Assembly: GCA_000934665.2 (NCBI GenBank)
Contig: KZ538751.1
Location: 1 to 49,932 of the forward strand
DNA from: Catajapyx aquilonaris
Taxonomy: Eukaryota
Direction: 5' to 3'
Length of the DNA: 49,932 nucleotides
Below, in pieces: positions 25,860-41,968 of the stretch (the stretch's first letter is position 1; each line of letters starts with the position of its first letter). A program made the translations under genes and the position numbers. The notes beneath the pieces are model-generated. The model was not told where the DNA came from and ran no database searches. It saw only the letters and a program-made list of their open reading frames with translations.

Positions 25860-26084
25860 GTCTGCCGCGAGTATCAGCGAGGAGCGTGCAAACGTGCGGA
25901 GAGCGAGTGCCGCTTTGCCCACCCCCCTGACTCCGTGACGGCCAACGAAGACGGCACTGTCACGGTCTGCATGGACGCTGTGAAGGGGCGCTGCAACCGC
26001 GACCCTTGCCGCTACTTTCACCCCCCTCTCCACCTCCAAGCCCAGCTCAAGGCCGCACAGTCACGGGCCGCCGCTCCCCAAGTG
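25860..26084 (+). CDS. mbl: Muscleblind exon: second tandem CCCH zinc-finger pair (ZnF3/ZnF4)
   Basis: tag|GTC...GTG|gtaggc, 225 nt, phase 0/0. Translates [75 protein letters not shown], with CX7CX6CX3H and CX7CX4CX3H spacing. Confidence 0.97.
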
Positions 26085-29000
26085 GTAGGCATTTCACGGT
26101 GCAATTCATGCTGTCTGCTTGTAGCAAGGTCTTGGGGTTCCTAATCTCTCATCTCTCTATCTTGTTTTTTGATTTCCCACCTTTTCTTTATTGGGTTTGT
26201 TTTCCTTATGATTTTTCTTAATCTCCACCTCCTTCCTCACCTCTTGATCACCTCCTGGGTTGTTCACTTTTCATGGGTTTGGACTAGTAGGATGGCTAGT
26301 AGCTGTAGACTCTTAGGCCCTGTTAGACTTTGTTTCTCTTGGGTTTCACAGTGGCTCTTCCTGTTCCTTGCTCCTCCTCTTTCTGCTTACTCATCTGCTT
26401 CAACTCTAGCACTCTTTAAGTCTCACTAGGCAACAAAACTGTACGTTTTGCCTCCTGTGAAACGTCCATTCCATCTCCTGACAAACCTCCCACCTTCTGA
26501 CCAACCACCTTTTTTTGGCACTTCTCTGGAGCCATGGCATTGCTGCAGCCTTCAAAGGCCGCAGGACTAACAACTGTTTTTCAGCTAACCAAATTGCAAA
26601 TGCTTTTTTACTACATTTTGATTCCTACACTCATCATGTGCATTTGTCAAGTGTCAAAACAGCATGGTGAACTGACACACCAGTGTGTTGACATATTGGC
26701 TCCAAAAATGATTCTCGCTGCAGTTGAGACTTGTGCCTGCTTGGGCGCCCAGAGTAGCATTTTATAAAAATGTATCCTTTCTGTCACAACTGGCAGCAGC
26801 AATCTGGTAGAAAATTTGAAAATCAGTACATCATGCTCAGCAGCTGCTGTAACATGCAATTGTTCTCGGGAACCAGGCAGGGATCTGCTCCAAGAGTTGC
26901 CATATGCTACATCCCCCTCCACCACCCTTTTGCCGACACCCAGCAACCTCTTCCCAGCATCCATCACCACCTTTTGCTGCCTTCTAGCTTGGCACTGACA
27001 AGCCTGAGCGCAGCTCAGTGTCCAACCATCATGCGGCCCAAATCGGCATTGCGACTTCACTGCCCCAGCTCTTCCTGCTAGCCAGCGCCACATGCTTTGC
27101 TCACTATACTCTTTCGGTACAAGGGCTCTTGTTTGAACAATGTAATCGATTCCTAACAGCGTTGCAGACGAGGCTGTTGTTTAAGAGAGTGCTCAATTAT
27201 GCCATGTATGAATTTTTCTCTTCCTGGATCTGAGTGCTGAAAGTGACACCAATAATGCGATACCTAGTTCAAAGAAAATATTTGTTCATTCTGTCTGGTG
27301 GATAATTGTGTCACGTGTCTGCAACAAGTCAGCTGAAATTACATTGTGACTGCATGAGTGTCTTGACAGTAGTCTTGTCCCTTCCTGCGTCCATTGTGCC
27401 CCGGACTGCAATTGGCATTTATCCCCCTGCCCCCCTTTTCATTGGCATTTGGGAACCCTGGGTTGTAGTACACCACACTGCACAGACGTCGTAGCACTGT
27501 TGCTGTTGCCCACGAAGCAGACCGTGGCCACAAACCAAAAGTGCGGCTTCCCTCTCCCATAACCTAATGCCCCCAACACCATGCGTCGCCGTTGCTTAAA
27601 CTCTCTTCCCAAACAAAACCAAATGGCGTGAGAAAGGTATACAACAAAAAACATGGACAGCAGTGAAGAATGCAAAATTGACTCAAGAGTGAACAGAGAA
27701 AAGCCAATGTGCGATCAGGGGAAGCCACTCTAATTTTGCCATTAATGGATTTGTCGAGTGAGGAGGTAATATGTAGACAATGTTAATGACCCTAAACACT
27801 GAGTAGGTTAGACTTTGTTAAGAAAAATTATAGTCCAATTTTAAAGAAGAGATCAGAACTTTAAATGCTTTTATTAATGGATGCAAAGTATGGAAGGTAG
27901 GTTCATTGATGGCAGTTTTTTCAGAATATGATACGATCACCTAGGTCGGAAGAGCAGTTGTGGAGATGTTATGACTCCCTCTTTTTCTTTCAGGGTAAGT
28001 AGTGGAGGCACAGGGGATGCAGTGTAACGTATCTTACAATCATGTACAACTTATGGTCCTCTTGACTTAACTTGTTTTTGTAGATTTCTCTCAATGTGTT
28101 TTGGACTTATGAAACTGTGTGTGCACGAACCAAACCTCATAACAACTGGAGGTGCATGGTTGCTTGTAGCATTAATCTTCGATTGGGTACTGTAAATCTG
28201 GAAAGTAATGTTCTGTATCATTATGAATGACAGGAGCGTTTGAAACATACTACAGTCATTCAGTCCCAGGTGGTATTGTAGTAGATATACTGTGAATCCA
28301 CAGTTTTTCTCATCTGTAATACTTCTTGTGTGATTGCATGAAACTGGTAGAAATTTTGAGCACCAGTACAATTTTTGGGACAAATTGTGTGCCCTGTGAT
28401 TGATGTCTGGTGACTTCAAGTTCCCTTTTTAATGTCAAATGTTGATATTTCATACATCTTATGCATGATGTAAATTGAAAATTAACTACTATGACATGTT
28501 TCAATAATGTATAAATATATTATTTCTGTAATATCAAGCGTGAAGTTACATTGATGTTCTTTACTGACTTGATGAGGTATGAGTCACTTGGATAGTACTA
28601 ATGTGAAGTATGATAATGTGTGCAACTCAAAAAAGTCTAATTGTGGGTGCTGTTGTAAACGAGGCTCTTGGGAGGCGTTTTGATAAGGTGAATAGCCAAA
28701 TACACACAACCATTCTGAATTAGTGATAGGTCCAAATTCTGTCTGCTTATAATCATACATAGAGTTGTGTGATCAAAGCTGTTGTGCGTGTTTTGAATAA
28801 AACGCTAATGGCCTACATTACCATTATAAAGAGAGGCGTCAGGGGCGAGCTGACTGTAACCTGGGGACTGATACATAATAATAATAGTCGTGTGTGGATA
28901 TTTTGGATGATGCAAGGTTTCATGAAGAAGAGTGTTGTTAATCAATGGTAATGCCAAAATGGAAGTGAATGTGGGTATTCAATTCTAATTGCACTCTTTC

Positions 29001-30132
29001 AGGCCTTACCTCGTATGGCTATGATAATGGCATGTTCCGTCTTAACACTAATCTCGATTGCTTTCTTTGCTTTCCAGTGCATCTGCCCAATTCAGAAGAG
29101 AATGGGAATGTTTATTAACAAGATTTTCCCCTGTGCCTCTGCACTTAGGTAGGATGCAAGTGGCATATGTATTTCCCAATGCAGTAATGATGACTTTTCA
29201 GTACTTCAAGCACAGTAATATTGTCCTTCATATTCTTGCTGAACTGTTCCTTTCATGTCAGTCCTATTTCACATATCTTTTCTCTTAACTCTCTTTACAA
29301 CTGAATCTCAGAGGCAACGAGTTGAAACATTGCGTAGGGATCAATGGCAATAATTTACCTGTAAAGTTTAGACCTTTTTTTTGGGGGTCCTTCATGAATA
29401 CAACTTCCAATTTTTGTATGTGTGATACAGTCACTTCAGACAGCTATATGATATTTACTTTTGCAACCGCTTTAATTTTTTTTAAATGTGATGTCAGTGC
29501 CGGATTGGTGGTGTCCCCCATTACCTTGCTTTTCAGGTATCATGCATGCTGTGCTACAATGACTTGAGTAATGTAGGTTTGTGGATCACAGTTCTGTTAC
29601 TTTGAGCAAGTGGCCTTTCTCTTAGATATCACATGCACCACTTCATAGCTGGATAAAGTCATGCGCGCATTCTTGTGACAGTCAAAGCCCCCAGTGTTGC
29701 TTTTCTTCAGTATCTGTTTGCCGATTGATGAAATGCTTCTGCTTCGAGAGCAGACTGAAAGTTGCTAGGCTCAGCAGTAGTGGATCTCAGCTCCTTGATT
29801 TGGATGTGCCTTTTAAAATTGGTTAGAAATGAAGTGTGAACCGCCATGTATATCTCGGTGTGCTAGATCCACCACTGACAGCTGCTCTTTTTTTTTTTTT
29901 ACGTCCCCCTCGACCCTCCCGCACCAATCACCACTGCTACAGTTAGAACTGCAAGGCCTGTCTCAGCGTAACAGCCAGAGCTGCATGATCCACATGTTCT
30001 TCCTCATTCTGTGATCACACTAGATTTCATTCAGTCGTTGCTCCGTTTGTGCCATCCAAAGCAGTTTACTGGTGTTGTGGTTATTGTTACTGTGGTAACC
30101 AGTGCTTTTTGTGAGGATAGGTCCCATCAGAG

Positions 30133-30289
30133 GCCACAATGTTTTTTCTTTTTTTAATTACAACCTCTTTTTTTTCGTCTCTTCCGGATTAATTATTGCC
30201 TTTTGATTATTTTTCTGATTTGTTGTGCTCATTTTCTTCCCACTCGGGCCTCCCTGATGCTTGGCTGCTTGCGTGCCTGCTACTAATAG
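30133..30289 (+). promoter_or_regulatory. AG-exclusion zone with YGCY cluster upstream of the 78-nt cassette exon (putative Muscleblind response element)
   Basis: No AG from 30133 to 30287. YGCY at 30197, 30226, 30258, 30266, 30274 and 30278. The pyrimidine tracts are displaced upstream (30142-30242). Confidence 0.65.
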
Positions 30290-30367
30290 CCCGTTTCCGT
30301 CGCAACCGTTGCCGGCGTGGAAGTGGGGAAGAAACGCGGCCGTGACCCTAGCGATGACATACTACTG
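30290..30367 (+). CDS. mbl: Muscleblind 78-nt cassette exon with basic NLS-like motif
   Basis: tag|CCC...CTG|gtacca, phase 0/0. Translates PVSVATVAGVEVGKKRGRDPSDDILL. It is a GC-rich island in AT-rich intron and sits just before the KRPA exon, like vertebrate MBNL1 exon 5. Confidence 0.8.
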
Positions 30368-33183
30368 GTACCATAATGCTTTGCATGTCACTCCTTTTTG
30401 TTTTTTTTGTTTTTTTTATATACAAAAAGTAGGAGTAGAGGTGTAGTGTAATGCAGGGTCACATGACATCACCTATGGATTGCAACTTTTGTTTTTTCAT
30501 TTTTTAAATTTTCCAATTGGCCTTTGCAGAACTTGTTCTGAGTTGTTCAGTACTTGCCACTAGTCAACTCTGTGTCACTCACCAACTTGTGAACTACGGG
30601 CAGGCTGACATTTAAAATACAAGTATAAACTCTAAGACTCAATTATCCTGCCATCCTACGGACGACAGTACTGATGAGTACTGAATGCCTGTCTCAACAA
30701 TCAGCCTTCATGATATACTGACGATTGGGAGTCACAGTTTGGTAGCCTCTTGCAGAGATTTGGTTTTTAAAATGTGATTTAATTTGGTGACAGTCTCGTA
30801 TATCCAAAATTGGGGACATCTTGGGGACCTATTTTATTGCTTATTGTGATTTTATTTTTGATTATTTGTATGGAAAAGCATGGCTACCAGCATTGCCCAT
30901 GATTACTCATATGACTACCGGCATATGCAGTAGATATAAAATTATATGCTTATGACATGTACATGCAAACGTTAGGCACTTTCAGATAGTGCAATTCCTA
31001 GACCAGATTTGTTAAAAGCTGTGTGCACCATGGATAGGTAAATATATTTGGTGAGTGATTCAGTATGAAAGCATGCCTGGAAACATTTGTCGGATCTCCC
31101 GAGTTAGTGCTGCCATTTTATTACCTCACTTATTTCACATAATGTAGGGAAAAATCCATTGCATCTTTAGAGATGACGTTCATGTCATGTGATCTTACCC
31201 CCTTTACATGATATTATTTATTGCACAAGCATTCTTTTTGAGTGAAGCTTAGTGAGTGTCACTGAACCAAAAAAAAAAGGCATTTGTTTATTTACTTTAT
31301 ATTTAAGCTTAACCAAAGTAGCAATGCTGTTTCCTTGAAGGATGTTGGTAGTGGTACTAGCCGCATGCAAGTCAATCCAGTTTTTGCGGTGAGATTCTCA
31401 GCTTCACCACCATTACACCTGCTGCTGTGCATTTGACACAAAGTACTGTATCTCGTAGATATTTGGGTGCTTCTGATTCTCAGTCTATGGTTAGGGGTCA
31501 CAGTGTTTCTCTCTTTCTTTGCATGATAGGCCAGCTTCCAAATTGCCACGTACGGGAAATACAGAAAAATAATAATTGCACATAGCGGCTGCCATATCTC
31601 AAGCATAATCCTGGCCCATTTCCTCACACTCCTGCCTTTCACTGCCTTGGCCATCAAAATTAAATTAATTCGCTCTGTGATGAATTGCGTGAGGAGCAGA
31701 AGGAAATCAGCGGACCACAATGCATGTAATGCTTCTTTCTCTTTCCTGATATTTTTATTTCTTTTTTGGAAAAAAAGAAAAGAAATCTGCCTTCATTTGT
31801 GATTTTGATGCTATTGTAGTCACCAGACAGCAGTAATGCTGCGGTGATGGATTCAGTTGCCTTGACCTGTTGTCTTCTCTTCCGAACCTGAAACAATTCG
31901 TGTCAGTGTTATATTGACTGATTTTCAGTTTGGCTGTGCTTTTTGCCATTGTCTTTCCCCCCCTCAGTGCCTACCGAACTACGCGGAAGTTTGTTACTTA
32001 GAACTTCATGTTTGCTGTTTTGTTTGTGCCCAATGAAGTGATTATTGTGAGCTAGGTAAATTGTTTTTGCTTCATGGTTGCACTTTTCCATTCTTTATTA
32101 GGACACTGCCATCGACCCACCTAAATGGTGCATAATTTTGATATTATTCGCCTATAAATTATGGCAAATATGTAAGTGTGTAGGTTGTACCTGGTGAGTA
32201 TGTGTTATTTTTATTCGTGGTGTTTCAGTATGCAACGAGTTACTATTCACTGATACATAATTTACCAGTATAACTTGAATCCATTGTATTTGTTCCAAAA
32301 ATGATGATATTTTCAGCTAGTAAATGCTTTTCAAGTAGGGAATAGGAGACCAGGTTGTTACACTTGTACAACTCTGTTTTAGCTTAATAATTAGGTCCTT
32401 AATTCCTACTGTTAAGTTGCTAGTTTAGAGAGAGAGAGGAAAAAAGTTGTGTATTTTCTTTGCCACTACTTACTGTGTCGTGTGATTTTATGTGTGGTGA
32501 AGACACATGAATATATGTGTAATTAGGCTGTTGCAATTTTAGGGTACATGCATAAATCTCCGAGTTATTAGTGCATGTCAACTAATGATTGCATAGGACA
32601 TCCAATTTGTCATCTAATGTGTGCATCACATGCATTTTGGCCAAGCTTCTGCCTCATGGGGCTTGTGGGGCAGGTGTGTAAATAATTACCCATGACCCAG
32701 TTTACCACCAATGACTACCACCCTGTAACATGACTAGTAAAAATGTTTGACTGTCACATTTGTTTCATGCAGGAATTGTTTTTCGCTGGTAATTAACAGC
32801 GTCCCATAAATTGGCGGTAAGTGCATTGAAATAACTGTGACCAACGATGTTGCTTTTCTTTTTTTTTCTTGGTCATCGTCATCACAGCAGCAGCGTCAAG
32901 ATATTTGTACCAAATTATGTGTGAAGTTGGATTATTACATTACACAGAAGTAGGTTATGATTTACCTAGTAAGAGGAGATGAACTGCATGTCTCCAGACA
33001 AATACTTGTTTTTTTTTCCTTTTTCTATTGTTTATGGAGCATCAGAAAGGAAGACGTGCAGTTTTCCCTGTAGGACATAGGTTAGTGTGTAGCTTGTGCA
33101 TAGAATGCGAAAGAGTTGTGTAATGTGTGAGAGCGGAGGCTATTGGCAGAGGGGCAGATCTGTAACATGGTCGTTCCTTGCAG

Positions 33184-33310
33184 GCCTTTCCAGGCATGGT
33201 GCCATACAAGCGGCCGGCAGGGGACAAGTCAGGAATGCCAGTGTACCAGCCCAATGCCACCGCCTACCAACAGCTGATGCAGTTGCAGCAACCGTTTGTG
33301 CCCGTGTCAT
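33184..33310 (+). CDS. mbl: Muscleblind KRPA exon, short form using the internal donor
   Basis: cag|GCC...TCAT|gtgagt, 127 nt, phase 0/1. Translates AFPGMVPYKRPAGDKSGMPVYQPNATAYQQLMQLQQPFVPVS. Confidence 0.92.
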
Positions 33311-34329
33311 GTGAGTACCAAGGAGGCGCCTCCTCCTCCTCCGCAACTTCCACCCCCACCCCTGCGGCCCTGCAGCTGGACTCTGTTGTGCCCGCCCCCC
33401 ACCACCAACAACTACAGCAACTACACCACCAGCTACCTACCCCGTCCGCTTACACTGCACAGCAAAACAACTTCGCAGCTGTTGCCACTTCCTCATCCTC
33501 CGACAGCCCGTCTCCAACCCATGTCAAAAATGATAAAAGTGATAATCCTGAGATATCCACTGCAGTTACTGTGGCTAGTGGGACCACCACCAGTTCCACC
33601 TCCTCTTCCCCAGTGCTGACTCGCAAGGTGAAGGACACGGTGCCACCCCCTCCTCCTCCTCCACCCCCGCCACCTCCCCTTCCCCCAACCTCTTCTTCTT
33701 CTGCCCTTCTAATGGGAATGCGGCCTGCCACTTACCCACCAACAATCAACCCTGTGACTGTCCTCTCCTACACAGGCGTAGCTCTCAACAAACAGCCAAT
33801 GGTGGCTGCTCCTCCTCCACACCACCAGCAGCACCACCACCATCCAGCTGTCGCTGCTCAGTACCCATTCTTTGCAGCGGCGGCTGCTGGCTTGCCACAG
33901 GGTGCGGCTTTCCCCTTGCATGCTGCCCATAGTTTCAATCATCAGGCCCATCAGGCAGTATCTGCTGCAGCCTACCCCCACCACTCCCACCCAGCAATGG
34001 CCAACTCTGCGGCTGCAGCTGCTGCTGCGGCCGCGGCTGCTTTGGCCAATGCTCAGAGGCCGGCCAATGCTGCTTTGATGCCCCAGTTCGGGGCAGCCGG
34101 ACTTGGGGCAATGGGCATGGCTCACCCACAGATGAGCCAGCAGATGGCTGCTGCTGCGGCAGCTGCAGCTGCACATGCACATCACCAGGCAGCAGCACAG
34201 CAGGCCGGCCTCATGAATAACTTCTTGAGTCAGTATCCCTTGGGCACCACTGCCACCACCACCAACAACAACAACCTTCTCCTTCTAAATGCTAATGTCC
34301 AGCCTGCCAAGCGCATGAAAACTATGTGA
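33184..34329 (+). CDS. mbl: Muscleblind long terminal exon (donor at 33311 unused): low-complexity Ala/Pro/His/Ser tail ending PAKRMKTM*
   Basis: The frame stays open for 381 codons (ORF track 33178-34329). Contains poly-P, poly-A, SYTGVALNKQ and a basic C-terminus. Confidence 0.88.
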   Translation, partial: AFPGMVPYKRPAGDKSGMPVYQPNATAYQQLMQLQQPFVPVSCEYQGGASSSSATSTPTPAALQLDSVVPAPHHQQLQQLHHQLPTPSAYTAQQNNFAAVATSSSSDSPSPTHVKNDKSDNPEISTAVTVASGTTTSSTSSSPVLTRKVKDTVPPPPPPPPPPPPLPPTSSSSALLMGMRPATYPPTINPVTVLSYTGVALNKQPMVAAPPPHHQQHHHHPAVAAQYPFFAAAAAGLPQGAAFPLHAAHSFNHQAHQAVSAAAYPHHSHPAMANSAAAAAAAAAAALANAQRPANAALMPQFGAAGLGAMGMAHPQMSQQMAAAAAAAAAHAHHQAAAQQAGLMNNFLSQYPLGTTATTTNNNNLLLLNANVQPAKRMKTM

Positions 34330-36455
34330 GGAGGATGAGGAGGGTTGCGGCAACCAGCCGGGGAAAGCCTGAAAATCCTTCCCAGTACACACACATACAC
34401 GTACATATACATGCCCATCCACCCCCGATCCACGTTGTGTTTTTTTTATGCGACTCTGGTGGTGGTAGATGCAAGTCTTTTTTAAACATTTTGTGGGCAG
34501 GCCCAGTGCAGTGACCAAAAAAGAAATTCCAACAGAAGTAGGGTGAGAGAGGCTCGCCCTTCCCAGACGCACCTGACGTTATTTTTTTGCACCCTTGCTT
34601 TCTGCATTTCTTTCATAAGAGCCACTAGGCACTCACCCAGTTTTATAAAATCTTATTACCTGTATATGCACACACCAAGCTGTTGTGTGGGAAAGGTGCT
34701 TTGGCGGGCGTGTGATGGACCAAGCTGTAATTTGTTTTTTTCTTTCTGTCTAACAATCATTGTCGTCCCCCCTGGACCCCCAATCTCCAAATGATTCCAT
34801 TGCCTTAAGCACACGTCTTCCAGAGTGTGTTTCTAAGGGGAGTGAAAAATTGACAAAACGTTGTAATGCCATTGTAACAAAAGGGAGTCAGAAGCATTTA
34901 AAGAGATTTGAACAGGTGCGTTTCCGAGGGCGAGCCTGCTGGGCCGTGTCACACCTTTGCATAACAATGCTAGATGTTTGACATCTAGTCACATTTTAAA
35001 ATTCCAAGTCACAAAGTTTATCATTTGTAAACAAAAATGTTGTGAAAGTATTAATATTTTTTGTAGCTAATCTAAAATAGTACTGTGATGTGTTAGTGAA
35101 GAAAACACTAAAATATATAATATATATTATATATATAATAATATCTATATTCCTATGTCATGGTCACTATTATAGATTTTAGTTGAAAGATTGTTTTGAC
35201 ACTGACAAGATTTTTATCCTTGTTGACAATTGAGGGGAAAAAAAGGAAAAAAAAAAAAGCGAGAAGAAGTAAGCATTTTTGTGCAGTTTCGCTCCCAGTG
35301 ATGTTTACAAAACTAGATTGCAAAGCGGAAGGAAAATGATGATAACTGATTGGGTATGGGGAGACCAAGTGTCGCTTTTGTTGCTTTCCTGGTGCATTCA
35401 ATTTTTCCGCAATTGTAGTCCAGTGCAAGGTGCAAGAAAAGGTGGTGGGTTCTATCCCACACTAGCCTGCGTTTGCATGCTGCTGTTGGGCTCCCACTTA
35501 AGCCAGGCAGATTTTAAAAAGCTTCCAACATTTTCCAGCTAAAGTACAGCTGTGATTTTGCTTGGCATATTATATTGGTTGTATTGTTGAAGTTGTACCT
35601 CTGTAGTGCCAAAGTAGTGTCAGCTGTTTTTTTAATTCCTATTATTATTATTATCATTCTTATTATTATCACCATTATTGACTTTTTATCACGTATATTA
35701 GCCTATTGCAAAATAAAAATCATGTGGAAATTTGATGAATACATGATGTAGAATTAAGCGCATCTACCAGTGATAAATCATAACCTTATTGCTAGGGTGA
35801 TGCAATATTTTAATCCACGGATTATGTAACCGATAACCGAGTTAATAGGAGCCCCCTTTTGCTGTAGCAAAATAATGCAGTGGCGAGGATTTTTCCACTG
35901 TGTTGCCATACCCAAATGATGGCTCTGACCCGAATCTGTGACAGACAACCTCGTTTTAATGTACTTAATTTTATAATGCTATTTTTTTTAATTTTCTCTT
36001 TCCACACTGAAAATAACCTGCAATCGAGTTTTATGAAATCTTTTAAATCGCATGCCTGCCATTTCTAATTTGAGATAGATGTTGTACGTAACAGTAACTA
36101 GGCATATTAATCAGTACTGTTAGTGTACAGTAATTTTTTATTACTTTAGCAATCATAATACACAAAGAGTACAATTTGTAGCATGCAGGGTTTGTAAATA
36201 GTAGGCCATAATATTAGTGTATCAGTTGCACACTTGGCGACCGAACGTGTTAATATCATTTTAGTAAACAAATAGTAGGTAATCGCGAGAGAGCCTTTGG
36301 GATACAAGAATAATGTTAAATATATGTTACGTTTAGTTACATTGCATTAGACATGCGTACAATAGGATGTTGATAGCTATTGTTGTGACCAATGATGTCA
36401 TTTTACTACAAACATTCGCAATGATAGTCCATGACTTTGCTGCTTTTTGAATAAA
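34330..36455 (+). other. mbl: Probable 3' UTR of the long-tail isoform, with candidate polyadenylation signals
   Basis: AT-rich sequence after the stop. AATAAA at 35712-35717 and 36450-36455, and a Pumilio-type TGTAAATA at 36193-36200. The true end is unknown. Confidence 0.45.
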
Positions 36456-39400
36456 AATTTCACAATCATGAAGTTGAGGGAAAGTCACTAGTGTCACCTG
36501 CAAAGTCAAAAACTAGTCGCAGAAGCATTTTGCAGTGCACAGGTTTTATTATACTTTCTGTGTACCATATGAAACTTGGCCATAAAATGGCATGTGAATG
36601 ATGCCGATAATGTTTTGAAGTAGACATTTTTTCTGGCTGATGTTCTGGATCGTAGGTCAGAAAGTTTTAACTCTAGTCGGACAAGGGGCTGTGTAACGTA
36701 GTAAAAGAGGCCCGCCATGTAATAGTGCACCACATCATATATACCTTTGGTTGGAATGCTATTGACACAGTTTGATGATGCAAGGAATCATGTGCGGGAC
36801 AAGCCTCTCTAGCAGGAGTAAAGAGCAAGAACAGCGGCGCTGCTTTGCATTGAGCTTGAAATTAATGAACATGGGTGCTGGGGGAGAGAGGGGAGGGAGG
36901 AGAGAGTCTTTTTGCTTTGGCACTGACAGGGGCAAAGAGCAGGTGACGTGTGTGAGCCAGGGAGGTAAGTGAGGTAAGGTGGTGGCACATGTGAGTTTCC
37001 CAAGGTATACAGAATCCAGTGTGGACAGAGTTGCTTCTCGGACCAAATTTCATCCGTTCTTTAGATAGATAAAAAAAATATACAAGCACAGATTCCGGTT
37101 CTTTGATCGAATCCGCAAGGATATCAATTGACAGTCGAGTCGCCTTAAGAGAAAGAGCAAAATGAAAAGAGAAGGCATGAAAAAGTGGAGCAGTCCTTGT
37201 CGGTGACCATTTTTGAAGTTGTAGCATTATTTTCAACTTCTTCCAAAGTGCAGTTGCTGATATTTTGCTTTCATTGTCCTCTTCTGCTGTCCAGTTTGGG
37301 TTACAAGGTTGAACTGTAGCATAGCTTGCTTCTTAAAGTATATACCAGTGTTGTATACAGTGCTGTACACCTTGGGATGTGTAATGTAATGTCTAATCTT
37401 TGCTGATTTTTTGTATGTAAATCAGCAGCACAATAATAATGCTTAAAAGTGCATGATAATTGTTTTATTAATCCTTCTCTCTTCAAGATTCTCTCTCCTA
37501 AAACCCTGTATTGAGTTCTGGACTTTTTTTGAGTTTCGCCAGTGTTTTTTTTTTACAAATTGTTTTTTCGGTTCCTTTTGACTTGCATTTTGTGCGTGCG
37601 CCTGTGCCAGAGGTAAGCAACTTCCAGATGTCTACTAACCCTCTATTAGCTTTGGCCATAGGCACTGGTAGCTTCTGCCGCAGTGGAGTAGAAACAAAAG
37701 AATCTTGCACACCTTTTGACCTGATGGTTGGGATGGGATGGTTGTTGCCGGCTATTCAAGCTTGTTGCTTACTAGGGAGAGGGCAGCGAAAACCATGGGA
37801 CACGGTCCGCTCTGTACCGACATGTGCGGGACAAGGTCCGACACCATGTGTGTGTGCGTGTGGGTGTGAGTGCGTGCGATATGCATTGCAGGTCTGCTGT
37901 GTCATTTCAACAGGGCTGCTTTTTTTCACCTGGTGTGCATGGCCTCCAACACTTGCCTTTAGAGCCCTTGCAGCTTCTATTGTCTTAAGTGCTGCTGTTG
38001 AAATGAATCAGTGACCTGCCAGTTACATTTGGAAACTAAGTGGGGGTGCAATCACCTGACGAGAGAAACTCTAAAAACCAGCTTCACTCTACCTACCGCC
38101 AGCAGCATATCAGAATAGTAGCAGAAATGTCGTCCTGGAGCGACAGTAATTGTGCAAGATCATTGTGATAGACTGTGTATAATAGTGACGCTTACTTGTC
38201 GCGTGCGAATGCAGATGGTGCGTGTGTAAATGTGACTACAGATGTACACGTTTACTTTACAGTAGGTGTGCATTCCTACATCGACCCGAGGCATCCTGGT
38301 GTCAACTGGGTGGATTCATAACAGGGAACTAAATACATCTCACCAGGAGAAATTATAAGCGCAAGATGCCAACGGCTCGGAGAACAGGCTCGAGCAGCGG
38401 AGGAAAATGAAAAGAACTCTTTTTTCCAAATTTTTTGTGTTTTTAGTGTGGTGTGATATTTAGGAAAAGAAAAAAATAATGTTGATTCGTTTCTTTTGGA
38501 CAATGAAGAAGTCAATTATATAACGTCTTGTATCTCATTCAAGTGGCTTACCTCTCCAAGTATTTGAATCTTGCGGAAATGTTTTCTTTTTTTTTCTTCT
38601 TCGTCGTGGACTCCTTACTGGTCACGTAGGAATGCACAGTAGCTTATAAGAAGAAGACATTAGTGAAATCAGTGCACTTGTCCCATGGTTTCATGTCCTT
38701 TTCCGGAGAGCATATAAAATCTGGAGTAACGTAGTGTGGGAACCACTGGATGGCTAGAGGCACTAGCAAATGGCATTTGATTTATTCTCGTTAGGTCAGG
38801 TTTTTTTGCCCGGTTCTGTTGCATGTTGCAAACAGAACGTTGGTTGGTAGAACAATTTGTTGTTCCTAAAAGTGCAAGAGACAAAGGGGGAGTAGCCAGT
38901 ATAAAAGATATAATACAATATGATGTCAAGTGTTGTTTGTCATGGTTGAGTTACATCAATTTTTACATCAGTGCTTGGCCCTGAACTTAGAAAATCTAAT
39001 ATTAGAAATTCATGTCCAAGAACTCACGGGTCAGGGGCATTGGTGGTAAGTATTGGTCTCTGTGAAAAATATATGCAAAAAGTGATGTTAATGACGTTAT
39101 GAAAAATGGAATAAAAAAAGAAGCCAAATCAGCAACAATCAAATGGACGGCATACAAGTTTGCTTTCCTCATCCAGGCAAAAGGCGCACAGGTGCACATC
39201 TCAATTATTACGACTACAGTTTTGCGAAGTGTTTCCGTTAGTTTTCATAGTTTAGCACATCTCTGCTTATTCTGAGTATGTTGGCTTGAAGCTATTTATT
39301 TATTTATTTTGGTTTCTTTGGCACCTTTTTTTCCAGTACAAGCCCATGTTTTTGACCACCCAAACGCTGGTTATCCATTCATGTATTAGTGAAGCTGTCA

Positions 39401-39496
39401 CGTGGAAGGTACACCACAGATGGTTATGTTCCCCAAACAACACATTTTTTGCCCCAGGTGCTTTCATAACCTCATTTTAACAGCGACGACTTCAAG

Positions 39497-40251
39497 ATTT
39501 GTTGTTTTGCGCACGTTGTATAATGATTTTCTCATTTTGTTTCGTCTCTTCCTTTTTATGCTTTTCTGGCGATGTTTGGCTGTTGACTCTGCACCTTCCC
39601 CAATTCCTGGCTTCCTGAACATCCTCTGCCATCTCATTCCAACCGCACGTCATGCTGCGGACACCTGCCCTCACCACCATCCGGATGTCCTGATGTTTCG
39701 TTCTGGACGACTCCCAATCCCAATCCTCACGAATGGCTTGGAAAATTACCTCATTCAACCATGGTCATCCTCTCCACATACACCCAAAAAAACCAAATTG
39801 CAATGCGGTGATGGTAATGTGTTAACACACTTTTCCTATCTGCCAAACTCTGGTGTCTGTTCAACATGGGCAATACTTTTTGGCCCTTTTTTTACCCCAC
39901 TCATCTCCCTCGTATCGCAATATGTTTGCGTGGCCCTTGGAATCAACACTCGGCTGCAATGCAAACACACTAACACCCTCTCTGTACATTTTTTGTTGTT
40001 GTCTGGGTTGCAAAATATGCTGGGGTTCTGGGGGGTATGGTCACCTTTTTGAAAACAAAATAATAATGGGGAGAAAAATGGCAAAACAAATCCTGTTGCG
40101 GTTTGGGTGGATGTCCAATACTCTGCTCTGCTGCGTTGGCACGGACTACCCCCACTTCGACCTTCCTGGCCTGGCCTGTTGCACTCGGTGTGACCCTTGT
40201 GCGCGCCGGAATGACCTGCTGCTTGGCTGCTACTGCATGGTGGGACGGTAG
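39497..40251 (+). promoter_or_regulatory. Very long AG-exclusion zone with candidate distant branch point and YGCY cluster
   Basis: No AG in 39497-40071, one GAG at 40071-40073, none in 40074-40249, then TAG at 40249-40251. CACTAAC at 39968-39974. YGCY at 40124, 40129, 40204, 40217, 40220 and 40228. Confidence 0.75.
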
Positions 40252-40310
40252 CCTTGCACGCAGTGCCCAGTAATGTGCATAGTGTTGTCTACACTGATGA
40301 AAATGGACAG
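40252..40310 (+). CDS. mbl: Muscleblind 59-nt frame-switching cassette exon
   Basis: tag|CCTTG...GGACAG|gtagac, phase 1 in and phase 0 out. Translates (S)LHAVPSNVHSVVYTDENGQ and joins the KRPA exon in frame to LLDTLPVCQDF. An in-frame alternative acceptor gives a start at 40264. Confidence 0.85.
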
Positions 40311-41264
40311 GTAGACCCTCTCCTTTTTTCTATAGTTACTCTTGTTAGAGTGTGTTCATGGTGAGTGTTTTTTACCATTTTGAAAGGGGCTGGCAGGGAC
40401 GGGAGATGCCGGGGGTCGAACAGTTTTTTTTTTGGTCTGTATTATGCAAGTTGCTTGAAAATGAGAATTCTGTTTCTGATTGTGTCTAACGCACCACCAA
40501 GAATGTTGTTTGCATTGCAGCAACCGAATTTACATTTTCATGCGACTGACTGGCATCATTTTTCTAAAGCATACCAGGATGGCCCCTCTCCACCTCCCCT
40601 CCTCTGCACCCACATTCTTGTAGCCTTGTTGTACACTTATTGTAGTGGCAAATTACCTCAATTTTTTTTTATTCTTACATAATGCACGACTTGTTATTAC
40701 TGCCGTATTAATCTGGATTTTCGCTTTGAACAAGAGAGCGTTCTTTGCAAGGATGTCATTGTTGGGTTAAATTTTTTATTTTTTTTGCCGCTTCTAACCA
40801 ACACTTTTTTTTCTCAATTGACAAGCTTTTTGCATTTTCCTGAAGCCACAAGGCCTGCCCATTCCACACGTCACTTAGGTGTCCTCTTCCTGCCGTTGCA
40901 GGTGGTAAGGGAGAAGGTTTTAATTTTTTGCCGATTGCTGGATGGAGCGTGACAATCCTTCCCATTCTCTTTCTTCCCTCCTCTGTTCAGAAAAAGAAAC
41001 GCGTCGGACATTGTTCTTTTTACGAAGATAAATTTTCTCATTATGCAGAACATGAAATACGTTTTTTGAATGACAGAATCGCCCGGGCCTTGGAGTTTGT
41101 TACATATTATTGTTATTTATATTTTTGTTCCTGTTGTAAGTGTCATACCGGTTCTTTGCGGAATTGCCATGACACTGTAGTTTGTTAAAAGATGCAGAGC
41201 AAGACTTGTTTGTTGGGGGGATGTATGCGTAAAAAGAAATGACAGCGCTTTTCTCTTTCCATAG

Positions 41265-41349
41265 TTGCTGGACACCCTCCCGGTGTGCCAAGATTTTAAG
41301 CGCAGTCAGTGCCGATGCCCATCCTGCAAGTACGTGCATCTGCTCGAAG
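41265..41349 (+). CDS. mbl: Dual-frame Muscleblind exon: ZnF5 (phase-0 entry) or FAGHPPGVPRF* terminus (phase-1 entry, stop 41297-41299)
   Basis: ttttctctttccatag|TTG...GAAG|gtacaa, 85 nt. One frame reads LLDTLPVCQDFKRSQCRCPSCKYVHLLE (CX7CX4CX3H). The other reads T+TT GCT GGA CAC CCT CCC GGT GTG CCA AGA TTT TAA. Confidence 0.92.
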
Positions 41350-41561
41350 GTACAAAACCTAGCCGAGATGAGGGGGGGAAAGAGAGGGAGCTATACTGTG
41401 TAGTAGAGAGAAAGAGAGGAGAGGGCTTTTTCAGGGTGGGGGAGTGGGAATAGTGAGAGTCCAGTCTTTTCCTGCCTAATTGTTGTTGTTGAGATACAAG
41501 TCCATGACTTTTCCACTACTATTCCAGTTTTCTTTTCTTTTCTCCCCATGGCCCTTGGCAG

Positions 41562-41968
41562 ATCACAAGGAGGTGGTGGACAGCAAGGTGACAGTGTGTC
41601 GTGATGCAGAGAAAGGGCAGTGCTTTCGTCCCCTGTGCAAGTACTACCACATCCCCATACCTTTGCCCCCTGCTGGCGACATGGCCCCCCACCACCACCA
41701 CCATCACCACCATCACCTGGCCTCGACTGGAAGCAGCACCATTGCCGTCAGCACCAACAACACTACGACCACCACAGCGGCCGCCTTCTATCCGGACGGT
41801 TGGGGGGCCTGGGTGCCTATGGACGCCATAGTCCCCTGTGCGGGTGGCTGGATCGGAGCTGCCCCTGCTCATTCTATGATGGATGCCACTATGCAGGGAG
41901 AGTTGCATGCAGCATCTGCTGAGGATGGGTTCCGGGTGCTGGCTCCAGTGCTGGCTGGAACAGGCTGA
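41562..41968 (+). CDS. mbl: Muscleblind terminal exon: ZnF6 and poly-His tail
   Basis: cag|ATCAC, phase-1 entry matching the donor after 41349. Translates DHKEVVDSKVTVCRDAEKGQCFRPLCKYYHIPIPLPPAGDMAPHHHHHHHHHL...AGTG* (CX7CX4CX3H). Confidence 0.9.

Follow-up and report, generated by a model that had tools for sequence, protein, structure and literature searches.

How can a 3′ splice site be selected when hundreds of nucleotides ahead of it hold no AG, and what would keep an intron in such a state? The question is raised by a 49,932-nt stretch of the Catajapyx aquilonaris genome (assembly GCA_000934665.2, contig KZ538751.1, positions 1 to 49,932 of the forward strand; hereafter the window), the plus strand of which is, on homology, the 3′ part of an arthropod muscleblind (mbl/MBNL) gene. 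A 59-nt cassette exon of this gene is preceded by a 6.9-kb intron (33311-40251), and the final 755 nt of that intron are almost free of AG. We consider it probable that 39497-40249 is an AG-exclusion zone, bounded on one side by a far-distal branch point and the associated pyrimidine tract (~39520-39566, ~720 nt upstream) and on the other by a weak TAG acceptor that has no tract of its own. AG-exclusion zones with a distant branch point are a known but rare route to a 3′ splice site that can be regulated. The elements concerned are listed below; negative positions count back from the acceptor.

39495-39496, plus strand: last AG ahead of the zone, forming its sharp 5′ boundary
39497-40071, plus strand: 575 nt without any AG, by direct dinucleotide scan
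40071-40073, plus strand: lone internal GAG (AG at 40072-40073), by sequence scan
40074-40249, plus strand: second AG-free run of 176 nt, ending at the AG of the TAG acceptor (40250-40251)
40249-40251, plus strand: TAG acceptor without an adjacent pyrimidine tract, from the sequence
40252-40310, plus strand: 59-nt cassette exon encoding (S)LHAVPSNVHSVVYTDENGQ, donor GTAGAC, placed by tblastn with arthropod and mollusc isoforms

AG is a common dinucleotide in the window (2991 in 49932 nt, or 0.060 per nt), and upstream of the zone edge its density is normal at once, with AGs at -755, -768, -794, -832 and beyond. After the two runs of the zone itself, the longest other AG-free gap in the window is 159 nt, and no gap of any other dinucleotide exceeds 347 nt. 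Of the gene's other acceptors in the window, six lie 17-57 nt from the next AG and that of exon 30290 lies 155 nt from it; at the 59-nt exon that distance is 753 nt if the GAG is disregarded and 176 nt if it is counted. The 755 nt of 39497-40251 contain 2 AGs where local base composition predicts 32, one of the two being the acceptor's own (Poisson P(≤2) = 5.6e-12), and the minimum reached in 20000 mononucleotide shuffles of the same stretch was 16. An earlier sequence-only reading of this DNA had drawn the two AG-free runs around a single GAG before a TAG acceptor, and had expected tens of AGs at random; its coordinates are exact and its expectation agrees with these counts. AG-free sequence thus covers the at least 100 nt that mark the class, up to a 3′ splice site whose use is judged from isoform peptides conserved in other species. 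The observed/expected ratio of AG in the zone is 0.03, that of its reverse complement CT is 1.06, and AA, GG and TG are raised, which looks as if AGs had been mutated away. Since CT is not depleted, the signal belongs to the plus-strand transcript and not to the DNA as such. A repeat search of the zone turned up only a direct pair of 16 nt and an inverted pair of 14 nt, and neither tandem nor dispersed repeat structure. Third in length among the AG-free gaps of the window is 26127-26286 (159 nt), a T-rich piece of intron just downstream of the exon for fingers 3 and 4.

The assignment to muscleblind comes from two open reading frames (ORFs), 25860-26144 and 41480-41968, which match the CCCH finger family PF22628 (zf-CCCH_10) with E-values of 5.6e-28 and 1.6e-07. 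A homologue search with the first returned 382 proteins; the 120 listed are nearly all named muscleblind or muscleblind-like, and the top identities among the matches listed (93-96%) are to beetle and orthopteran proteins. Exons were mapped by tblastn of the best 120 of the 382 Mbl proteins against the window, together with inspection of the junctions. Those around the cassette are as follows.

33184-33310, plus strand: upstream exon (AFPGMVPYKRPAGDKSG...QQPFVPVS), by tblastn and sequence
33311-33316, plus strand: donor T GTGAGT of exon 33184, phase 1 (cut after T), from the sequence
41265-41349, plus strand: dual-coding 85-nt exon with a canonical acceptor (cttttctctttccatag), by tblastn and sequence
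41562-41700, plus strand: exon for zinc finger 6 (DHKEVVDSKVTVCRDAEKGQCFRPLCKYYHIPIPLPPA...), by Pfam, tblastn and sequence

The length of the cassette is 2 mod 3, and its inclusion therefore shifts the frame of exon 41265-41349. When the cassette is included this exon reads LLDTLPVCQDFKRSQCRCPSCKYVHLLE, the fifth CCCH zinc finger, and the sixth follows in the exon from 41562 onward; when it is skipped the same 85 nt read FAGHPPGVPRF-stop. By tblastn, Mbl isoforms from insects, crustaceans, chelicerates and bivalves contain a recognisable form of the cassette peptide. Among the best 120 of 382 Mbl proteins, 34 join the cassette peptide to zinc finger 5 (ZnF5), 13 end in GHPPGVPRF and 73 do neither. 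Moreover, a spliced, cDNA-like metagenome contig (L012) joins the exon bearing the YKRP motif straight to the finger-5 exon in the skip frame, and so gives RNA-level evidence of the skip isoform in another, dipteran-like species. On these comparisons the 59-nt exon is a real, conserved and alternatively used cassette, its alternative use being evidenced from other species. The "frame-switch exon" of the sequence-only reading is therefore real, with both forms annotated in other species.

Several smaller observations concern this switch. Cassette lengths deduced from the proteins of other species are 56, 59 and 68 nt, always 2 mod 3. A CAG at 40261-40263, 12 nt inside the 59-nt exon, is in the same phase and would leave a 47-nt exon; it is a possible alternative acceptor, removing four residues without altering the frame switch. 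Positions 385-560 of L012 (in match orientation, which is the reverse complement of the stored locus) read ...QQPFVPVSFTGHPPGVPRF-stop.

Orthologous introns were sought in metagenome contigs, which were scanned with a degenerate pattern for exon 41265; 13 loci matched, and the same pattern gave no match in the genome contig or viral contig collections. The finger-5 peptides of L003, L004, L005, L007, L009, L011 and L013 are closest to an orthopteran protein (96%), and that of L001 to a bivalve protein (89%). Of the 13 loci, 6 extend far enough to include an orthologue of the 59-nt exon; the other 7, L012 among them, hold only 182-676 nt of sequence ahead of the ZnF5 exon. A long AG-free zone precedes the orthologue in all 6. 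These 6 loci comprise three distinct insect sequences, L005, L009 and L013 being identical over the aligned stretch, and one mollusc-like sequence (L001). The insect zones measure 486 nt (L005/L009/L013), 485 nt (L007) and 484 nt (L011), and lead to a cassette that is again 59 nt long, with a tract-less AAG acceptor (...ggtttgggcaccaag, then the exon). In L001, 417 AG-free nt, one GAG and 105 AG-free nt precede a cassette of 119 or 122 nt, the two lengths arising from a tandem CAGCAG acceptor in the same phase; the sole AG inside this zone is a GAG, as in the window. From local composition the P values of the contig zones are ~1e-8 and 2e-8, each zone exceeds the next-longest gap in the same contig by a factor of 3.2 to 7.5, and CT shows no depletion. 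AG depletion in orthologous introns, which would bear out the sequence-only reading, is therefore present in 6/6 loci that hold the exon.

The insect zones are also conserved in sequence. Identity among the three distinct insect sequences is 95.9-98.8% in the zone, 74.6-94.1% in the 340 nt just upstream and 89-93% in the downstream intron; in the most divergent pair it falls from 98.8% to 74.6% at the zone edge. Such a pattern argues for constraint on the sequence itself and not only on the absence of AG, and would fit a regulatory platform.

Could the AG-free run be an effect of chance or composition, or an artefact of repeats or low complexity? The zone is mildly rich in T and C, and this is all that speaks for such an origin. 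It is refuted by the composition statistics (P ~5e-12), by the strand asymmetry, CT being undepleted, and by the orthologous zones, in which the same property occurs independently in two other lineages; moreover, there is no repeat structure to produce it. We therefore give this explanation virtually no credence. A second alternative takes the zone for an undetected coding exon, for a structured non-coding RNA or for a minus-strand (CT-free) feature. Long ORFs do cross it (219 and 141 aa on the plus strand; 150, 119 and 90 aa on the minus strand), and its high conservation among the insect contigs would suit any of these. However, the ORFs are there because TAG is absent and TA scarce. Four of the five had no Pfam match and the fifth only sub-threshold ones (E 0.021 and 0.07, below the curated cut-offs), the 120 Mbl proteins gave no tblastn alignment with a meaningful E-value in the zone, and a coding sequence without AG in all three frames is implausible. 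An Rfam search of the zone found no match at E≤1, and its folding is not more stable than that of shuffled sequences (z = +1.61 for the window, 20 shuffles; z = +0.92 for L007, 100 shuffles). A role outside splicing is accordingly very improbable.

If the zone belongs to splicing, the branch point should lie near its upstream end, and it is there that the pyrimidines are found.

39527-39566, plus strand: strongest pyrimidine/T-rich 40-nt stretch of the whole 50 kb, 88% pyrimidine and 65% T, starting at -725
39520-39535, plus strand: candidate far-distal branch-point adenosines 39523, 39526 and 39534, predicted just upstream of the tract
39968-39974, plus strand: CACTAAC, intermediate branch-point candidate (A39973, -278), followed by a moderate pyrimidine tract, from the sequence

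Pyrimidine content in the 40 nt that lead up to the acceptor is 50%, the 47th percentile of the window, in keeping with the sequence-only reading, which had noted an acceptor without an adjacent tract and had named CACTAAC (A39973) and ttctcAt (A39534) as candidate branch points; both sit where it placed them. We ranked adenosines with an ad hoc score that combines the match to the U2-pairing consensus with the pyrimidines downstream. A39526, A39523 and A39534 are among the top four of the window by this score, and positions at the zone edge come first in L007 and L001. When the 1.5 kb ahead of the acceptor is searched for its best 40-nt pyrimidine window, that window begins 7-30 nt inside the 5′ zone edge in each of the three lineages:

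Window: best pyrimidine window at -725, zone edge at -755, last-40-nt percentile 0.47
L007: best pyrimidine window at -479, zone edge at -486, last-40-nt percentile 0.58
L011: best pyrimidine window at -478, zone edge at -485, last-40-nt percentile 0.60
L001: best pyrimidine window at -519, zone edge at -526, last-40-nt percentile 0.04

Thus the window, L007, L011 and L001 each have a tract at the putative distal branch site and none at the acceptor. Because the best tract starts just inside the zone edge in every lineage, its position favours the far candidate (39523-39534, ~720 nt upstream) over CACTAAC as the predicted setter of zone length.

We propose the following mechanism. U2AF and U2 snRNP would assemble on the distal pyrimidine tract and branch point at ~39520-39566. 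Once the lariat had formed, the first competent YAG downstream would become the 3′ splice site, which here would be the TAG at 40251. Any intervening AG would be used as a false acceptor, and such AGs would therefore have been purged, with only the poor GAG tolerated; a G at -3 makes a poor acceptor. The spacer would then serve as a binding platform on which regulators set the splicing partner of donor 33310. Joining to the 59-nt exon would yield the isoform with zinc fingers 5 and 6, and joining to the canonical acceptor at 41264 the short ...GHPPGVPRF isoform. The distant branch point and long regulatory platform put forward by the sequence-only reading gain support from these results, only indirectly, in that the cassette is real, the orthologous zones are AG-free, a tract lies at the zone edge and the insect zone is conserved.

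A number of observations weigh against this proposal. A distance of ~720 nt from branch point to acceptor is beyond the published values found, the longest quoted AG-exclusion zones being 381 and 438 nt (PMC1431707), and in the folding results nothing suggests that structure would shorten it. Closer candidates exist, namely CACTAAC at -278, TCGTAAC at -133 in L007 and aatgAcc at -37, and the ad hoc score puts CACTAAC nearly level with the distal sites. Generic YGCY is enriched in none of the zones, with 12 copies in that of the window where 18.1 are expected. The zone is not alignable across the window, the insect contigs and the mollusc-like contig, MAFFT giving no convincing blocks, and the comparative sample is small, at three lineages. 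Shared 8-9-mers across lineages are at chance level (for example, 2 shared 9-mers where ~1.6 are expected). What is conserved at this depth, as far as the sequences compared indicate, is the AG-free property and the layout.

The closer candidates allow a different arrangement, in which the main branch point is intermediate or proximal (A39973 at -278, or aatgAcc at ~-37), the distal tract is a decoy or minor site and the upstream 475 nt are kept AG-free by that site. CACTAAC is the best match in the zone to the U2-pairing consensus and is followed by pyrimidines, the TCGTAAC of L007 precedes a stretch that is 72% pyrimidine, and exons of HTR4 reportedly branch at several distant sites as well as at weak canonical ones (PMC7969005). 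Against this, the zone ends at the distal tract and not at the intermediate candidates in all three lineages, and keeping 400-475 extra nt free of AG demands that the distal site be used often enough to matter. We therefore think this arrangement unlikely. It is in any case a variant of the same idea, the element still being an AG-exclusion zone, and the intermediate sites may carry much of the splicing.

The proposed far-distal arrangement can be set beside four known systems. The closest is the autoregulatory 3′ splice site of intron 4 and exon 5 in human/mouse MBNL1, for which the excerpted accounts place a far-distal branch point at -141 and describe the acceptor as a weak AAG; the YGCY motifs by way of which MBNL1 represses inclusion lie in a 90-nt interval between the two (PMC7901844; PMC4176163). 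The two share the gene family, a far-distal branch point (a candidate here) with its tract, an AG-free interval and a small cassette that alters the protein. In both the acceptor is weak and without a tract, being AAG in MBNL1 and the insect contigs and TAG in the window. The 59-nt exon is, then, a small cassette with a weak acceptor in a muscleblind/MBNL gene, but it is not orthologous to the vertebrate exon 5, a 54-nt in-frame exon that comes directly after the ZnF3/4 exon. The 59-nt exon stands two exons further along, shifts the frame and opens a third zinc-finger pair. Moreover, the zone is about five times longer here, with 575 nt (753 across the GAG) against a branch point at -141. Regulation by the gene's own protein is reported for MBNL1 and would be a matter of analogy for mbl.

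In Gooding et al. 2006 the AG-exclusion zone of PTB exon 11 is given as 381 nt and that of nPTB as 438 nt, the latter with a predicted branch point at -389 (PMC1431707). The class outlined in the excerpt combines a distant branch point and tract, use of the first AG downstream, and an AG-free interval that carries regulators. As in PTB, nPTB, alpha-tropomyosin and alpha-actinin, the interval at our locus is long and has a tract, here with a candidate branch point, at its upstream end; as in that class, the zone is kept in orthologues even where it cannot be aligned, and regulated cassettes of RNA-binding-protein genes are concerned. It differs in being longer than any value quoted there, in being invertebrate and common to the insect contigs and a mollusc-like contig, and in that its branch point is predicted.

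OGDH exons 4a/4b are described as having distant branch points, a "megaPPT" and a ~280-nt AG-exclusion zone protected in evolution (PMC7969005). That zone tolerates a single GAG "spoiler", which does not serve as a 3′ splice site, and the same excerpt states that fish orthologues have no YAG motifs downstream of the putative distant branch points. This tolerance of GAG fits the finding that the only internal AGs of the window and L001 zones are those of GAGs. The likeness extends to a strong tract far from the acceptor, an AG-exclusion zone and its lone GAG. In OGDH, however, the distant branch points lie near the upstream 5′ splice site and enforce mutual exclusivity, whereas at our locus the donor is 6.2 kb distant and inclusion is set against skipping. 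The last comparison is with "REPA", the name given to G tracts that follow the pyrimidine tract and precede the 3′ AG (PMC6339879). Here too purine- or G-rich sequence parts the tract from the AG, with a GGG at -10 to -8 in the window and L007 and G runs at 40023-40036. In contrast to REPA as excerpted, GGG/GGGG is not enriched in the zones and the separation is hundreds of nt, not tens.

Which factors might read the spacer? The same gene holds a second, shorter zone.

30133-30287, plus strand: 155-nt AG-free zone with acceptor AG ahead of exon 30290, by dinucleotide scan
30290-30367, plus strand: 78-nt in-frame cassette (PVSVATVAGVEVGKKRGRDPSDDILL, KKRGRD motif), by tblastn

Exon 30290-30367 directly follows the finger-3/4 exon and is present in some beetle isoforms and not in others; on the tblastn map, its place in the gene corresponds to that of vertebrate MBNL1 exon 5. 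Two elements are common to its zone and that of the 59-nt exon. In the pyrimidine tracts, TTTTTTTTCGTCTCTTCC (30168-30185) matches TTTTGTTTCGTCTCTTCC (39535-39552) at 17/18 positions, and the far-distal tract at 39527-39566 contains TTTCGTCTCTTCC (39540-39552), common to both. Near the acceptors, CCTGATGCTTGGCTGCT (30253-30269) matches CCTGCTGCTTGGCTGCT (40215-40231) at 16/17, and TGCTTGGCTGCT stands at the identical offset, -32 to -21, of both (exons 40252 and 30290). Apart from these elements, T-rich low-complexity words and two other single matches, no 12-mer of 30100-30300 recurs in the window. The pair of zones therefore resembles one design in a short and a stretched version, probably read by the same factors.

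The motifs nearest to the acceptor of the 59-nt exon are:

40215-40231, plus strand: CCTGCTGCTTGGCTGCT, a UGCU/CUGC cluster at -37 to -21, from the sequence
40234-40239, plus strand: TGCATG at -18, from the sequence; L007 has TGCATG at -35
40242-40244, plus strand: GGG at -10 to -8, from the sequence; L007 has GGG at the same offset

TGCATG is a hexamer of Rbfox type. Enrichment was judged against 1000 dinucleotide-preserving shuffles, for YGCY above as for the motifs given here. CTGC occurs 13 times in the window zone where 6.5 are expected, a count reached by 1/1000 shuffles; the figures are 9 vs 4.7 (25/1000) for L007 and 9 vs 5.6 (72/1000) for L001. GCTGC occurs 5 times in the window zone where 1.3 are expected. 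PTB-type (TCTT/CTCT), GGG/GGGG and GCATG motifs are not significantly enriched over shuffles in the zones. With YGCY unenriched, the case for Mbl binding rests on the local cluster and on analogy. Mbl itself would be the likeliest regulator, owing to the analogy with MBNL1 exon 5 and the UGCU/CUGC cluster at -37 to -21, but this is suggestive only; Rbfox and hnRNP H/F-type factors are further candidates, and TGCATG and GGG near the acceptor are further leads.

These observations allow a more specific hypothesis, namely autoregulation, in which Mbl, bound to the cluster by the acceptor and at further places in the zone, would repress the 59-nt exon and exon 30290 together. We regard it as possible, though our expectation leans the other way. 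The gene family is the same and the layout matches that of MBNL1 exon 5; CCTG(C/A)TGCTTGGCTGCT occupies -37 to -21 of both AG-zone exons; and CTGC (13 vs 6.5) and GCTGC (5 vs 1.3) are enriched in the window zone. However, YGCY as a class is unenriched in every zone, and the shared 17-mer was not found in the insect or mollusc-like zones.

Elements of this kind are known; this member is new, and the longest found quoted. Among the literature matches listed, judged from titles and abstract openings, there was no account of an AG-free zone in an invertebrate muscleblind gene, and the excerpt of a Drosophila mbl isoform paper mentions one and two tandem finger motifs only (PMC3315501). The zone appears to be ancient. 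Examples quoted in the excerpted literature top out at ~380-440 nt, such that 575 nt (753 across the GAG), together with relatives of ~500 nt, would stretch the range over which the first AG is found. The zone also provides a natural test case for how the splicing machinery, in its second catalytic step, locates an AG more than 0.5 kb away. Moreover, the exon it guards decides between four and six zinc fingers in muscleblind. MBNL1 is the protein sequestered in myotonic dystrophy. The layout resembles the human MBNL1 autoregulatory element, and by this analogy suggests a style of regulation that may be ancestral to the MBNL family and used at more than one exon. At its boldest, the idea would be that ~720 nt here, and ~480-520 nt in other protostomes, are possibly the longest branch-point-to-acceptor distances yet seen, kept since before the split of insects and molluscs within an ancient self-regulating Mbl switch; Mbl in the spacer would decide on the 59-nt exon, and the exon-5-like cassette 10 kb upstream would come under joint control of the same cis-elements. 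In this full form we hold the idea to be doubtful.

The dual-coding exon is itself tightly constrained. All 13 metagenome loci keep both of its frames, and almost every base of exon 41265 is fixed because the two frames overlap. Across loci these frames read as zinc finger 5 (LLDTLPVCQDF...) or as the tail F(A/T)GHPP(G/S)VPRF-stop. A 29-nt core, GACACCCTCCCGGTGTGCCAAGATTTTAA, is identical in 11/13 loci, with L001 (mollusc-like) and L008 one base off each.

The rest of the gene in the window comprises three exons upstream of those already given.

20242 onward, plus strand: exon for finger 2 and linker, by tblastn
22580 onward, plus strand: exon, by tblastn
25860 onward, plus strand: exon for fingers 3 and 4, by tblastn and Pfam

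The YKRP motif of exon 33184 corresponds to the conserved FKRP region, described in the excerpted source as MblC-specific in Drosophila (PMC2238819). If the donor at 33311 is left unused, this exon becomes a long terminal exon, with ~1 kb more of Ala/Gln/Pro-rich coding sequence to a stop at 34329 (...KRMKTM; ORF 33166-34329), so that one donor would have three fates. The long read-through form resembles a long Tribolium isoform (P0037). Just past zinc finger 6, a run of nine histidines at 41690-41716 (GDMAPHHHHHHHHHLAS) is without counterpart in the aligned orthologous proteins. Human MBNL1 is not known to carry fingers 5 and 6, no search having been made for jawed-vertebrate proteins that have them. 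Three lamprey MBNL-like proteins (P0065, P0077 and P0078) do carry both fingers (DTLxICRDF...VTVCRDAAKGKC...), and the pair seems to be present in early vertebrates.

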